Positions 979 to 6,929 of a DNA stretch of 6,929 nt are shown one piece after another. Made by a program: the position numbers and the translations under genes. The notes under the pieces were generated by a model. That model was not told the origin of the DNA, did no database searches, and worked only from the letters and a program-made list of their open reading frames with translations. The stretch is from a virus. Taxonomy: Duplodnaviria > Heunggongvirae > Uroviricota > Caudoviricetes. Every line of letters begins with the position of its first letter. Position 1 is the first letter of the stretch. The stretch lies in IMG/VR virus record IMGVR_UViG_2751185958_000012; one strand, given 5' to 3'.

Positions 979-1052
979 GCGGGCGTAGTTCAATGGTAGA
1001 ACGAGAGCTTCCCAAGCTCTATACGAGGGTTCGATTCCCTTCGCCCGCTCCA
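979..1052 (+). tRNA. glyU: tRNA-Gly, anticodon CCC, 74 nt including encoded CCA
   Basis: Cloverleaf folded by hand. Acceptor stem GCGGGCG (979-985) pairs with CGCCCGC (1042-1048). D stem GTTC/GAAC. Anticodon stem AGAGC/GCTCT with loop TTCCCAA, anticodon CCC at 1011-1013. T-loop TTCGATTC. Discriminator T then CCA at 1050-1052. Confidence 0.95.
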
Positions 1053-1186
1053 TGACACTTCTTAAAGTTCAATAACTTACTGAATCCTAAGGGATACGGC
1101 TTAAAGCCTTCCGAGAGTTTTACTCACTGTAACCAACACTGTGACTAACTTTGTTGAAGTAGTGAGCAGACCTAAGGTCTCAGTAC

Positions 1187-2794
1187 ATGCTCAACTCAAG
1201 AACCTACCTTTATCAGCGTAACGGTGTCTTTTACATCCGTCTTAGAATGAAGAGCACTGGTCGCCTGACCGCTTCGCTTCCCTCTCATAACCGTTATAAA
1301 CTAGCGTCAGTATCACTACGGACTAAGGACAGACGCACCGCTATGGCTCACTCACGGCACATCAAGTCAGCACTTAAAGCAATCCACGCAGATAACCCTA
1401 ACGCCTCTTATGAGGAGCTACGGGAGCACCTGAAGACCATTGTCGAGTGGGAGCTTAGTGTCAGCCGTGATGACCTGAACGACCCAGAGTCCTACCAGCT
1501 TTACGTTGACCAGTACGATGACATTAAGTCCAACCTTCGGGAAGCTGTAGCGACTGAGCGTCTGACTGTAGACCAGCATCGCTATATCAATGACGTTATC
1601 GGTGTGCTTAAGGCCTGTCAGGACAGACTCAGGGGTGATAGCTCTGGCCTGTTGTCTTACCTTGAGCCTGAGACCAGTAGTCTAAGACCGTCCGTCTCCC
1701 TATCTGTATTGGCAGATCCTGAAGTCCCCGAACCTAAAGCTCTTACCCTCGCGTCTCTCATTGAGCAGTACGAGCAGGAGAACGCCCAGAACTGGAAGCC
1801 AGCGACCCTAAGCGAGAACCGAGCGTCGCACTCCACGCTAATCGAGATATTCGACTATCTGGATATTCAGGATGTCGGCAAGGCGACCCGTTCAGATATG
1901 CTCAGGGTCCGTGAAGTCCTCCAGCAGATACCGAAGAACCGCAAGCAACGCTTTAAGTCTATGCCGCTGTCTGACCTGCTGAACCGGGAGTCTAAGACTG
2001 ACTGTTTGGATGTCGTTACCATCAACAATAAATATCTTATCAAGATGGCTGCTGTGTTTAAGTGGGCGGTACGCAACGACTTGATAGCTAAGAACCTGAC
2101 CGAAGGTCTTGAGCTGAAAGTCCCGCAGCGTAAAGCCTCCGACGCTCGTGATGCGTTCAGTCCTGAGCAGGTAGGGCAACTACTGGTCGCCGCTAAAGCG
2201 TACTCTCAGAAGACCGCAGGTAAGCCATACCATTATTACGTCACCGCTCTGGCTGCGATCACTGGAGCAAGACTTAACGAGGTGGCCCAACTTCAGGTCA
2301 AAGACGTCAGGGTCACTGAGGCCGGGACCGTGTATATCCACATTAACGAAGACGATAGCAGCCTGCCGGGTAAGAGCGTTAAGAATGCGCATAGCGACCG
2401 CTGTGTCCCGCTGGTCGATGGCGCTTATGGTTTTGTATTGGCTGACTTTGTGTCGCTTGTGGAAGACCGTAGAAAGGCTGAGGGTGATAATGCTATGGTA
2501 TTCGATGGCCTCAAGCTGATGAAGAACGGCTACGGTGAGCAGGTGAGCAAATGGTTTAACCGAACGTTGCTACCTAAAGTCCTTGCTGACCGTAGCGGCT
2601 TAGCGTTTCACTCGTTTAGACATACTGTTGCGACCCAGTTAAAACAACATGGGGTCGAGTTAGCGTATGCTCAGGCGATTATGGGCCATTCGAGCGGGTC
2701 CATAACTTACGACCGTTACGCGAAAGAGGTTGAGGTAGATAGATTGGTTAATGTGATGGCTGGTGTTTATAAGGAGACTGGAGTAAATGGCTGA
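1187..2794 (+). CDS. int: Tyrosine site-specific recombinase (phage/island integrase), 535 aa, three-domain type with N-terminal arm-binding-like region
   Basis: C-terminal catalytic signature: TGARLNEV (Arg), [11 protein letters not shown] (His-x-x-Arg), [14 protein letters not shown] (His and nucleophilic Tyr). N-terminus VFYIRLR...[10 protein letters not shown] resembles the arm-binding domain of island integrases. Located 135 bp downstream of the tRNA 3' end, the classic arrangement for tRNA-targeting elements. Exact start codon uncertain (weak RBS at 1187). Confidence 0.9.
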
Positions 2795-3446
2795 GTATTA
2801 TCCGGCGGTGTTTGAAGCAGAAGCTTTTAATTGCCCTCACTGCGGTGTATATGCCCGTCAGTTCTGGCGTAGTATGTATGGTAATTCGAATGTGCTTGCG
2901 GTCAAATCAACTGAGTTCCGAATGTCAACATGCTCTCATTGTGGTGAAGATGCCTATTGGTATCAGGGCAACATGTTGATCCCTGCGGCTGGCAATGTTG
3001 AACTCCCAAACCCAGACATGCCCGATGACTGCAAGTCAGACTATATGGAAGCTAGAAGCATCATTAATCTGTCTCCTAAAGGCGCAGCAGCACTCCTTCG
3101 TCTTTGCCTCCAAAAGCTAATGGTCCACTTAGGCGAACCGGGAAACAACATTAATGCTGACATTCGGTCACTCGTCCAGAAAGGACTACCTGTACGCATT
3201 CAGCAGGCAGCAGACATCTGTCGTATCGTTGGCAATCAGGCGGTCCATCCAGGAGAGATTAGCCTTGATGACGACCCACAGTTGGCACATGGTCTCTTTA
3301 AGCTGTTGAACATTATTGTCACTGAGCAGATTACCAGACCGAAAGAAATTGAGGCTATGTTCCAGAGTATGCCTGAAGGTCCACGCCAAGGTATTGAGAA
3401 TCAGGACAGACAGGCGAGGGAACAGCAGCAGGCTGCTAATGAATAA
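2787..3446 (+). CDS. Hypothetical protein, 219 aa: N-terminal four-Cys zinc ribbon plus C-terminal DUF4145-like helical domain
   Basis: Two CxxC pairs (CPHCG at 16-20, CSHCG at 49-53). C-terminal segment [22 protein letters not shown]...[16 protein letters not shown]...[13 protein letters not shown] fits the DUF4145 pattern as I recall it (conserved R-x2-GN-x-A-x-H). AAGGAG RBS at 2771-2776. ATG 2787 overlaps the integrase stop (ATGGCTGA), implying translational coupling. Domain call is from memory and needs an HMM search. Confidence 0.75.
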
Positions 3447-3465
3447 AACCCACACTATAGGGGGA
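3443..3465 (+). promoter_or_regulatory. T7-class (single-subunit phage RNAP) promoter-like sequence P1: ATAAAACCCACACTATA|GGGGGA, +1 at 3460
   Basis: The -7 to +3 core CACTATAGGG matches T7/T3/K11-type promoters. Positions -12 to -9 (ACCC) resemble the T3 specificity region. Overlaps the stop codon of the upstream CDS. Confidence 0.55.
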
Positions 3466-3471
3466 AGGGGG

Positions 3472-5337: not shown

Positions 5338-5529
5338 ATGATTGACCCGCGCACACCTGAGGGCCGCATGACTCTCCGTTACCGTGGCTACCGGACTGAA
5401 GTCCTCCTCAGAGAGCTTGGTCTAGACCCGGAAGATGAGACCCGCCAGCACCAATCACGAGACGAGCTGATAGTGCAACTGGTCGCTATGAAACTGCCGT
5501 CAGCTAGCAAGCTAGCGCCTAACCGTTAG
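5338..5529 (+). CDS. Hypothetical small protein, 63 aa
   Basis: ATG 5338 lies 1 nt after the upstream stop (TAA 5334-5336). GGAGG at 5324-5328. No recognisable domains. Contains the second copy of the GCTAGCAAGCTAGC motif near its 3' end. Confidence 0.45.
   Translation: MIDPRTPEGRMTLRYRGYRTEVLLRELGLDPEDETRQHQSRDELIVQLVAMKLPSASKLAPNR
5503..5516. repeat. 14-bp near-palindromic motif GCTAGCAAGCTAGC, copy 2
   Basis: Exact repeat of 4103-4116. Confidence 0.5.
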
Positions 5530-5649
5530 CAGCTCACCTACTTAATACCTCATTTTAAACCTTTTGAGATGACCGATGCGGGGAGACGCCGCAGGACTAA
5601 ACACGCCTGTGGTCGACCGATAGTCTCAACCTCAAAGGAGTACCAGCAT

Positions 5650-6141
5650 ATGTTATTCAACAACAACGAATGGAAACTGTCAGTCACCGACATCGACCTT
5701 TACGCAAATACTTGCAAGCTGGACGGTCAGTCCTATCCGTTGTCGCTCGCTATCAAGACCCTCATTCCGGGCTATCTGTCAGGCCTGCCGTCTACCAGCC
5801 GCGAGGCAATGGAGTTACTGGAAGCTCTGGCTGAAGCTGGTGTAGCTATTGGCAACTTCTTCAGTAATGACCTGCTGACCGCCTACCAACGCCGCCAGAT
5901 GAATAAGCGTGTCGAGGCTGAGCGTATCGCTAAAGAGCTGGCGTCTCAGAAAGAGCGTACCCGCGAAATGTTCATGACCGAAGACGAATGGCAGAAAGAG
6001 CTACAGCGCCGCGAACAGGTCAAAGCTGAACGCCGGACATATGGTGAGAACCTCCGCAGTGCTACCCATTCCGCTGGTCGCTCACGTGCATCAATTATGG
6101 CTGACCTCGATAGTGGCGCTAACTGGATGGACAGCTTGTAA
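5650..6141 (+). CDS. Hypothetical protein, 163 aa from ATG 5650 (six-frame ORF begins at 5569); charged, probably coiled-coil C-terminal half
   Basis: AAGGAG at 5634-5639 with a 10-nt spacer before ATG 5650. No RBS precedes the 5569 ATG. Lys/Glu/Arg-rich helical-looking segment RRQMNKRVEAERIAKELASQKERTREMF. No family recognised. Confidence 0.6.
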   Translation: MLFNNNEWKLSVTDIDLYANTCKLDGQSYPLSLAIKTLIPGYLSGLPSTSREAMELLEALAEAGVAIGNFFSNDLLTAYQRRQMNKRVEAERIAKELASQKERTREMFMTEDEWQKELQRREQVKAERRTYGENLRSATHSAGRSRASIMADLDSGANWMDSL

Positions 6142-6224
6142 GCAAGCGACCCTCATCTGAGAACACACGGTCCCTGACTGCCTGTTAGGGACTTCAAGTA
6201 TTTGACTCAAGGAGATTAATTATT

Positions 6225-6482
6225 ATGACCATGACAAAAGACGCTTTACAGTTTGGCATTGAGCCAGTTCGCATTACTGATACTGACAACATGCAGGTAA
6301 ACGAAGGTCTCCCGACTAACGCCGACCCTCAGGTCTATGCCTTCCAGTTAGCTAAGCTGGTGAAGACCATGCTCAATTCTGTACTTAAAGACGCTCAGGA
6401 TAACATTCCGTTCCCTGTAGAAGTCCTGCCGACCCGTAACAGCTTACCGACTCCAATCATTGCTCACACTCTGGCTGGGTGA
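6225..6482 (+). CDS. Hypothetical protein, 85 aa; probably a 5' gene fragment truncated by the downstream IS insertion
   Basis: AAGGAG at 6209-6214 upstream of ATG 6225. The stop codon TGA (6480-6482) coincides with the first three bases of the IS3-family terminal repeat TGAAGTGG. Confidence 0.5.
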   Translation: MTMTKDALQFGIEPVRITDTDNMQVNEGLPTNADPQVYAFQLAKLVKTMLNSVLKDAQDNIPFPVEVLPTRNSLPTPIIAHTLAG

Positions 6483-6929
6483 AGTGGTCAACAAAAACTG
6501 GCCACCGAGTTAGAGTTTTTCCAGTATCGATTTTCCGATTCGTTTGGGGTAACCCACCACCGGCATCCATTCGTTCTTCAGACTCCTGAAGAAGCGTTCC
6601 ATTGGGCTGTTATCCCAGCAGTTTCCGCGCCGGCTCATACTCTGTCTGATCTGGTATCGCCACAATAACTGCCGGAACTGCCTGCTCGTATAATGACTGC
6701 CCTGATCGCTGTGGAACATCACCCCGCCGGGCTTACCACGGGTTTCCCATGCCATTTCCAGCGCTTTCATGGTGAGCCTGCTGTCCGGCGAGAACGACAT
6801 GGCCCAGCCCACTGGTTTTCTTGCGAACAGGTCGAGAACAACGGCGAGGTACGCCCAGCGCTTACCCGTCCAGATACAGGTCACATCACCGCACCACACC
6901 TGATTTGGCTCGGTCACGGCGAACTGCCT
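6480..6929 (-). mobile_element. IS3-family insertion sequence (IS911/IS3-group-like), partial; one terminus at 6480, continues past the window edge
   Basis: Terminus TGAAGTGGTCAACAAAAACTGGCCACC (TG...CA ends typical of the IS3 family) lies 30 bp beyond the transposase stop. Encodes a DDE transposase on the minus strand. Confidence 0.8.
6510..6929 (-). CDS. IS3-family transposase OrfB (DDE integrase-like catalytic domain), C-terminal portion; N-terminus lies beyond the window
   Basis: Translation contains [11 protein letters not shown]...[19 protein letters not shown]...[10 protein letters not shown]...[20 protein letters not shown], characteristic of IS3-family OrfB including the D, D, E region. 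The ORF remains open to the window edge. Confidence 0.85.

Follow-up and report, generated by a model that had tools for sequence, protein, structure and literature searches.

The DNA analyzed here, hereafter the window, is the whole 6,929-nucleotide stretch of IMG/VR record IMGVR_UViG_2751185958_000012. Its bases 1053–6929 make up the left-hand part (5.9 kb) of an island copy that measures 7.9 kb and is damaged by insertion sequences (ISs); the island, 6.4 kb when undamaged, is integrated in glyU, the gene for tRNA-Gly(CCC). The island matches the enterobacterial family of tandem T7-like promoter islands, and carries the defense gene RAZR (also called PD-T7-4) directly upstream of three promoters of the T7 group. 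We consider it likely that the element combines this defense gene with a second set of genes gated by phage RNA polymerase (RNAP). In the following, module 1 denotes the integrase gene and RAZR, and module 2 denotes the genes behind the promoters, namely a regulator gene (Rha type in the window), c4, c3 (a DUF6971 protein), and c2. The positions of the features are listed in Table 1.

The left boundary of the element coincides with the 3' end of the tRNA gene, since the break in identity to E. coli CFSAN064035 falls exactly there. The actS and tRNA genes are 99.9–100% identical to those of this strain up to base 1052, and the identity goes down to 87–96% from base 1053 onward. The last 17 bp of the tRNA gene (TCCCTTCGCCCGCTCCA) recur 6.4 kb downstream in the intact copies of strains CFSAN064035, E166, and 582. 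Among the loci compared, which are given L numbers, exact second copies lie at 27314 in L001, 28043 in L002, 16231 in L008, and 17725 in L011. The repeat is longer (23–27 bp) in several relatives, and its 23-bp version corresponds exactly to 1030–1052. Elements of 4.3–6.5 kb bounded by 17–27 bp direct repeats of the tRNA-Gly(CCC) 3' end were found at nine loci. The window is matched at 100% identity by the chromosome of L011 (CP026814.1), where the neighborhood is lysS-idi-IS1-actS. The 17-bp attR lies approximately 1.9 kb past the window end in this chromosome, and therefore the island copy there is 7.9 kb long. The same allele without either IS is found in the E. coli assemblies L008 and L009 (99.9–100% identity), where the element is 6381 bp in length.

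An artificial empty site was made by joining the 200 bp that lead up to the tRNA 3' end to the 200 bp on the right of attR. Of 5426 complete E. coli genomes, 4606 contain this junction uninterrupted, several of them at 100% identity, and the segment of the integrase and DUF4145 (RAZR) genes is found at a coverage of at least 80% in 141 genomes. A discrete element has thus been inserted site-specifically in glyU. A preliminary description of the window, made from its letters, had noted a tyrosine integrase starting 135 bp after the tRNA-Gly(CCC) end, expected attL to overlap 1030–1052 and the right boundary to lie outside the window, and proposed searching for a direct repeat of the tRNA 3' end and for strains with an empty glyU site. 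The integrase gene, the repeat, both boundaries, and the empty sites were all found accordingly. The integrase family adjoins tRNA-Gly(CCC) in many Enterobacterales.

These data also bear on whether the region could be the part nearest the tRNA gene of either the ETT2 type III secretion island or a conventional prophage. In many E. coli strains the element lies between glyU and ETT2 and borders directly on the latter, and three provirus calls in IMG/VR include it. However, attR separates the element from ETT2, strain E166 has the element at glyU without ETT2, and the 4606 genomes with the empty junction join glyU directly to the sequence on the right of attR. Neither structural, lysis, nor replication genes were found in the 6.4 kb. 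This explanation is refuted by attR and the empty sites, and we give it practically no credence. The element is an independent insertion at a hotspot shared with ETT2. The preliminary description was right in naming glyU as such a hotspot, in seeing neither structural nor replication genes among the open reading frames (ORFs) of the window, and in judging the region to resemble a conventional prophage less than a phage satellite or defense island.

The three promoters, which confirm the phage-RNAP-type promoters named in the preliminary description, lie on one strand within 608 bp. The full P1 site, ATAAAACCCACACTATAGGGGGA, agrees at 22 of 23 positions with a promoter annotated in Vibrio phage ICP3, and its position is conserved in relatives. 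The full P2 site, ACTAAACTATCACTATAGGGAGA, is identical at all 23 positions to the promoter of coliphage EcoDS1 at 20819–20841, between genes 9 and 10A, and also matches K1F-like phages (Kayfunavirus group) generally. A 22-mer of P2 recurs at 4027–4048 within the P3 region as a direct repeat (D2), and P3 is conserved in other alleles and other genera. By sequence, the promoters are real, P2 being an exact copy and P1 and P3 near-copies of phage promoters, and they are the hallmark of the element.

The position and strand of such sites should be noted. At 19 loci, the 1.4-kb plus-strand zones after the integrase gene (26 kb in total) contain 41 exact occurrences of the word CACTATAGG, compared with a single one in the other 713 kb of strand-positions, and such sites are approximately 750-fold enriched in the zone. 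In relatives from more than 10 genera, this position is occupied by promoters of the T7, K11, or gh-1 type, and the types fit the phages of the host genus. The island of Klebsiella pneumoniae ATCC 13883 combines a perfect T7 promoter with two promoters of the K11 type, one of them perfect (AATTAGGGCACACTATAGGGAGA). One to four such sites are found in the islands of Proteus, Citrobacter, Buttiauxella, Shimwellia, Enterobacter, Kluyvera, Lonsdalea, Edaphovirga, and Pectobacterium, and a GC-rich 7-kb contig from a Pseudomonas-like relative has gh-1-type sites (AAAAACCCTCACT). E. coli ET565 has a 4.3-kb element lacking RAZR with two canonical T7 promoters, one of which is the perfect 23-mer TAATACGACTCACTATAGGGAGA. 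Promoter-like sites for sigma-70 number 1 in the L008 island (9800–16400), compared with 5.6 ± 2.4 in shuffled sequences.

In the ET565 island (L004, 10814–11144), both T7 promoters lie within a tandem duplication of approximately 118 bp. The number of promoters can therefore rise by local duplication.

The RNA between the promoters and the regulator gene is predicted to form a long irregular hairpin immediately upstream of the AAGGAG-ATG of the regulator. Its two main helices are paired at 99% across 12 distinct sequences, as against 35–52% in slid controls, and at six to seven pairs both bases have changed in a compensatory manner. The minimum free energy is −38.6 kcal/mol (z, −2.4). The hairpin is kept whichever regulator comes next, and it is found at the same position in L001, L003, L004, L012–L018, L020, L024, L025, and L030. 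An Rfam search of the window detected the tRNA only, and the hairpin gave no match. T7 itself has RNase III stem-loops between promoter and gene, and the annotation of phage gh-1 shows the same layout of promoter, RNase III stem-loop, and gene. Since T7-group phages place RNase III stem-loops in this way, the leader looks like a copy of phage expression signals, and its cleavage by RNase III is putative. An additional helix of a pseudoknot type may be present in the leader, judging by eye from the pair CTCAAG/CTTGAG, in place of which other loci have CACAAAG/CTTTGTG.

No convincing ORF was found in the approximately 0.9 kb that follows the RAZR gene. Between P2 and P3 lies a spacer of 530 nucleotides (3495–4026) that shows good conservation among E. 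coli, Citrobacter, Buttiauxella, and Enterobacter. The small ORFs in it, such as that of 60 amino acids at 3846–4028, differ in length between alleles, so the spacer may be a non-coding transcript.

The promoter sites might be functionless relics, for example recombination debris of T7-like phages, in a decaying integrase cassette that happens to hold RAZR. The window copy is indeed visibly decaying with two IS insertions, and family searches assign no function to the module 2 proteins. Relics, however, would not be expected to be enriched at one position and on one strand at 19 loci, or to be kept as exact consensus promoters of differing specificity in different host genera. Moreover, the RNA hairpin downstream is maintained by compensatory substitutions, and c4, c3, and c2 are kept as ORFs from Enterobacterales to a Pseudomonas-like host. 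We regard this explanation as very improbable.

The common gene order was obtained by clustering the ORFs of 16 islands. It runs from the integrase gene through RAZR (11 of the 16 islands), the promoters, a leader of 0.3–0.9 kb, a regulator, c4, c3, and c2 to attR, and all the genes are co-oriented with the promoters. The regulator slot is filled by interchangeable types of DNA-binding protein, namely Rha, KilA-N, or two unknown types. The c4 gene is present in 11 of the 16 islands, and its product has no family match in Pfam, PADLOC, PHROG, or NCBIfam-type searches. The structure of c3 was modeled with a predicted local distance difference test score (pLDDT) of 72 as a small N-terminal domain followed by a long helical C terminus, and the sole notable structural neighbor of this predicted fold is a Shigella hypothetical protein. 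The c2 gene is full length at 14796–15782 in L008. Its product is 328–402 amino acids long across the islands, and the family has 62 representatives at 50% identity. The model of c2 is unusable (pLDDT of 37). Searches of Rha, c4, c3, and c2 against Pfam, NCBIfam, and PADLOC gave nothing beyond Rha/KilA-N, and a PADLOC search of the cargo of the islands lacking RAZR gave nothing but a weak PD-T4-2_B match of a KilA-N protein.

Two distant members of the c2 family end in Ig-like domains (Big_2 and He_PIG). Ig-like domains in phages mark virion surface proteins. The gene order, the helical c3, and these relatives of c2 raised the candidate assignment of c2 and c3 as capsid and scaffold proteins. 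This assignment is not supported, judging from the hhalign probabilities of c2 with T7-group gp10 (0.2%) and of c3 with gp9 (0.1%). In addition, there was no sequence match in PDB and no consistent match in PHROG, and c2 has no tblastn match in 50,697 phage genomes.

Two side observations concern module 2. Within the Rha ORF, 4745–4778 is a perfect tandem duplication of the 17-mer GCTCAAAACTGAGCAGT, and a nearly identical motif is found in the leader of alleles with a different regulator (Ec582 and Citrobacter). The duplication may be a junction of module swapping. A c2 homolog is also found at the start of a contig (L029, 119–1108), followed by genes with Pfam matches to molybdopterin oxidoreductase, DUF1161, UPF0257, acetyltransferase, and DUF1283, which suggests a second integration site or a rearrangement.

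Chen and Schneider reportedly described 'tandem T7-like promoter islands' of enterobacteria in 2006. These islands are said to lie beside tRNA genes, to lack an RNAP gene, and to have a tandem array of T7-group promoters, two or three of them spaced over a few hundred bases. They reportedly measure approximately 4–13 kb and have an integrase gene and flanking repeats, and their promoters face two to five genes of one orientation, most of which have no known function or are of a phage-regulator type. The present island is like them in each of these features. It has three tandem promoters, the elements of 4.3–6.5 kb have an integrase gene and repeats of 17–27 bp, and Rha, c4, the DUF6971 gene, and c2 lie downstream on the promoter strand. 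The intact 6381-bp copy holds only the integrase gene, RAZR, Rha, c4, c3, c2, and small ORFs, with no RNAP gene. The presence of RAZR beside the integrase gene, the covarying leader, and the IS damage either postdate that description or are not known to be part of it.

The protein encoded immediately after the integrase, predicted in the preliminary description to be a Zn-ribbon/DUF4145-like protein, is identified as RAZR by its matches. The DUF4145 domain was detected as PF13643 (1.3e-13). PADLOC assigned the protein to PD-T7-4 (2.7e-102 over 1–209/211). All 219 residues are aligned with chain OA of PDB 9Y9C (2.4e-140) at approximately 92% identity, without change in length and with 17 substitutions. 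This identification bears out the defense-island half of the preliminary description. PD-T7-4 originated from a functional screen, in which its gene was found to often overlap an integrase gene (Vassallo et al. 2022, PMC9519451), and the RAZR gene of the window likewise overlaps the integrase gene, by 8 bp. In a 2026 Nature paper, PD-T7-4 received the name RAZR and was reported to consist of an N-terminal Cys4 zinc finger and a divergent HEPN RNase with catalytic Arg146 and His154, and to form oligomers (PMC13017515). It is triggered by assembly around phage rings, namely the portal of T7, T3, or SECphi18, or Gp77 of SECphi27, and then cleaves tRNA, rRNA, and mRNA to give abortive infection (PMC13017515). 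Protection against T7-family phages by abortive infection was demonstrated for the 92%-identical protein of E. coli UMB1727 (PMC13017515).

The positions of the substitutions in the window protein should be noted. The zinc ligands (Cys16, Cys19, Cys49, and Cys52), the catalytic Arg146 and His154, and the linker Ala-Gly-Asn at residues 68–70 are all kept. Of the 17 substitutions, 11 are in the zinc-finger domain, mainly in the loop of residues 33–41 (with differences within residues 29–64), and this domain sets the phage specificity of RAZR (PMC13017515). Residues 179–181 in the oligomer interface are Thr-Glu-Gln in the window protein, compared with Asp-Asp-Arg in the solved protein. Since defense is lost in the D179A D180A double mutant (PMC13017515), activity of the window protein, with Thr179 and Glu180 at this interface, is likely but not certain.

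A RAZR homolog with 88% DNA identity is also found in E. coli MRY15-117 (L005, 7021–7656), approximately 600 bp after the tRNA-Thr gene beside proA, with neither an adjacent integrase gene nor a match to T7-like promoters. RAZR thus occurs in another tRNA-linked island too.

Considering the two modules together, we propose the following working. Module 1 would be expressed by the host, and RAZR would assemble at the portal ring of T7-family phages, cleave RNA, and abort the infection. Module 2 would be silent in the uninfected cell, lying behind three promoters that would be read only by single-subunit RNAPs of the T7 type. The polymerase of an infecting phage would transcribe the structured leader and then Rha, c4, the DUF6971 gene, and c2, and the resulting transcript would carry a phage-like hairpin for processing or stability. 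Promoters of several specificities would widen the range of phages that trigger it. Module 2 would then serve as an infection-gated second function against the same phages, by interference, by the excision and spread of the island itself, or by both.

Several points weigh against this proposal. RAZR is absent from five of the 16 islands, and therefore should be cargo rather than the reason why the island family exists. The substitutions at residues 179 and 180 and elsewhere make the activity of the window protein less sure. Firing of a phage RNAP at the window promoters in vivo is something we infer. Finally, Rha, c4, c3, and c2 match no defense family in PADLOC, which leaves any defensive role of module 2 conjectural.

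A bolder version of the proposal is possible, though we hold it tentatively. The island family may be an unrecognized class of minimalist parasites of, or defenders against, virulent T7-like phages, with phage RNAP serving as the induction switch, each island being a two-tier element against Autographiviridae and perhaps transduced by them. The promoter arrays of multiple specificities would then be a broad 'sensor', RAZR would be a first-line suicide module sensing the portal, and an undescribed leader RNA with c4, the DUF6971 protein, and c2, three protein families lacking known relatives, would carry out interference or hijacking.

It is somewhat doubtful, but deserves weight, that the island is instead a true minimalist satellite of virulent T7-like phages, in which the helper RNAP would drive excision, the helper would replicate and package the island, and RAZR would be an accessory as in P4 hotspots. 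T7 promoters can serve as T7 replication origins. The island moves between genera, because its DNA in Buttiauxella, Citrobacter, and Enterobacter shares 92–94% identity with that in E. coli/Shigella, far more than the flanking actS does (72–76%), and this spread occurs without conjugation genes in the island. The element is small and tightly bounded, with an integrase gene and att sites, and its co-oriented genes would be transcribed all round in a circular form. The fit of the promoter types to the phages of the host genus is also consistent with a satellite, as are the Ig-like domains of the two distant c2 homologs, one of which lies in an island of like layout. However, in the window and the intact copies neither a replication initiator, a terminase, a portal, nor a capsid-remodeling gene was detected, and the hhalign probabilities and the tblastn result for c2 given above speak against relationship to the T7 capsid. 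When the island was compared with phage genomes, only the promoters matched, and the island does not contain ATCTGTT, the class II pause/packaging signal. Searches for copies that are circular or derived from viromes found none: the element-sized Logan contigs are chromosomal, and IMG/VR yields only the three provirus calls, all from isolate genomes. Furthermore, an abortive gene set off by the portal of the helper would oppose transfer. The other half of the preliminary description, the helper-dependent satellite, stays a candidate.

Comparison with known satellites gives a similarly mixed result. A precedent for satellites of virulent phages is provided by PICMIs, which are called minimalist and have a reduced gene content (PMC10803314). 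Like these and other small satellites (SatelliteFinder families, PMC10085698), the present island is approximately 6 kb long with an integrase gene and co-oriented genes, and such satellites are tied to virulent phages and can carry defense genes. Unlike them, it has no detected AlpA, primase/replicase, small terminase, or capsid-size genes, and its induction is proposed to occur via promoters for the helper RNAP, not via an antirepressor. The ORFs of the window and the intact copies yielded no domain of a satellite-type replication module (primase/replicase), and no family match to packaging or capsid-hijack genes was found in the window island. The defense hotspots of P4-like satellites and P2 (PMC9122126) are similar in having variable defense cargo in a fixed slot beside the integrase gene, as RAZR is in 11 of the 16 islands, being missing or replaced in the others. 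In contrast, the backbone of the window island lacks the P4 genes psu, delta, sid, and alpha, and the cargo of its RAZR-less relatives lacks a PADLOC match, apart from the weak one mentioned above.

The element type (2006; Nucleic Acids Res 34:1133, PMID 16493139) and the defense gene (2022 and 2026, down to the cryo-EM structure) are already known, and the window copy is a degraded member. The literature searched contained nothing linking T7 promoters with satellites or with the genomic context of RAZR, and a keyword search of the RAZR paper (PMC13017515) gave nothing on integrase, island, mobility, prophage, or genomic context. Three points seem to be new in that literature, namely that RAZR is linked to T7-promoter islands, that the leader covaries, and that c4-c3-c2 are conserved as far as Pseudomonas-like hosts. 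RAZR has lately become a solved model case of how supramolecular assembly activates immunity. Its location directly upstream of phage-polymerase promoters, in 11 of the 16 islands sampled, ties a 20-year-old, experimentally unexplored puzzle to a modern defense system, and raises a testable question, the effect of the polymerase-gated genes on T7-like phages, which are workhorses of phage therapy and biotechnology.

Table 1. Features of the window and their positions
Feature	Position	Strand	Remarks
actS (YgeR), LysM/M23 protein ActS	121-900		Upstream of glyU
glyU, tRNA-Gly(CCC), integration target	979-1052	+	ARAGORN; Rfam tRNA, 71.6 bits; 100% identical to E. coli
attL core, 17-bp direct repeat TCCCTTCGCCCGCTCCA	1036-1052	+	tRNA 3' end
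Tyrosine integrase, 535 amino acids, intact	1187-2794	+	PF00589, 3.8e-18; phrog_1, 6.6e-44
RAZR/PD-T7-4, 219 amino acids, Cys4 zinc ribbon and DUF4145 (HEPN) RNase	2787-3446	+	
P1, T7-group promoter-like	3443-3465	+	ATAAAACCCACACTATA then GGGGGA; +1 at 3460; overlaps RAZR stop codon
P2, exact Kayfunavirus-type late promoter	3472-3494	+	ACTAAACTATCACTATA then GGGAGA; +1 at 3489
P3, second Kayfunavirus-type promoter	4028-4050	+	+1 at 4045
Structured RNA leader, long irregular hairpin	4271-4344	+	Just 5' of the regulator Shine-Dalgarno sequence
Native Rha gene start: AAAGGAG, ATG, 10 codons, cut by IS remnant	4365-4394	+	By comparison with intact L001 and L008
IS3-family remnant, 240 bp (left inverted repeat and first ~190 nucleotides of orfA)	4395-4634	+	AAC duplications on both sides
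Rest of Rha-family regulator	4635-5336	+	Within chimeric ORF 4449-5336
c4, conserved protein, 54-76 amino acids	5338-5529	+	63-amino-acid ORF; motif IDPRTPEGR...LGL
c3, DUF6971 protein, 163 amino acids	5650-6141	+	Longer ORF starts at 5569
c2, N-terminal 85 codons of 328-amino-acid conserved protein, cut by IS	6225-6482	+	
IS3-family element, ISEc52-like, inserted in c2	6483-6929	-	rve, 2.5e-32; transpos_IS3, 4.3e-51; runs off the window

As the preliminary description had it, the window contains two different IS3-family elements. The 240-bp remnant is 100% identical to the 5' ends of IS3-family elements and is absent from L001, L008, and L009. Since it sits after codon 10 of Rha, the 295-residue ORF at 4449–5336 is a chimera of IS and Rha, as its matches indicate (PF09669, 1e-17; HTH_Tnp_1, 1.8e-7; phrog_10324, 6.8e-68). 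The antirepressor-like regulator of the preliminary description is confirmed as one of the Rha type, but the ORF starts in IS3-family orfA and is not a native gene. The ISEc52-like element, 96% identical to a copy in E166 annotated as the ISEc52 family, splits c2 after codon 84. The integrase gene, RAZR, the promoters, c4, and c3 are intact. With the start of Rha lost to the remnant and c2 interrupted, this decayed copy probably no longer has a functional module 2, and the integrase and RAZR are likely to be its only working parts.

Within the rightmost IS of the window (6549–6558, compared with 15372–15454 in L011), approximately 81 bp are missing that are present in L006, L010, and L011, chromosomes that are identical otherwise. 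At the left end, bases 1–96 do not match the E. coli spacer between xdhA and actS. The actS gene of the source-like chromosomes (L006 and L011, 8158–8855) is preceded by IS1 and lysS-idi in place of xdhABC, which points to an IS-mediated rearrangement of a type usual in Shigella.

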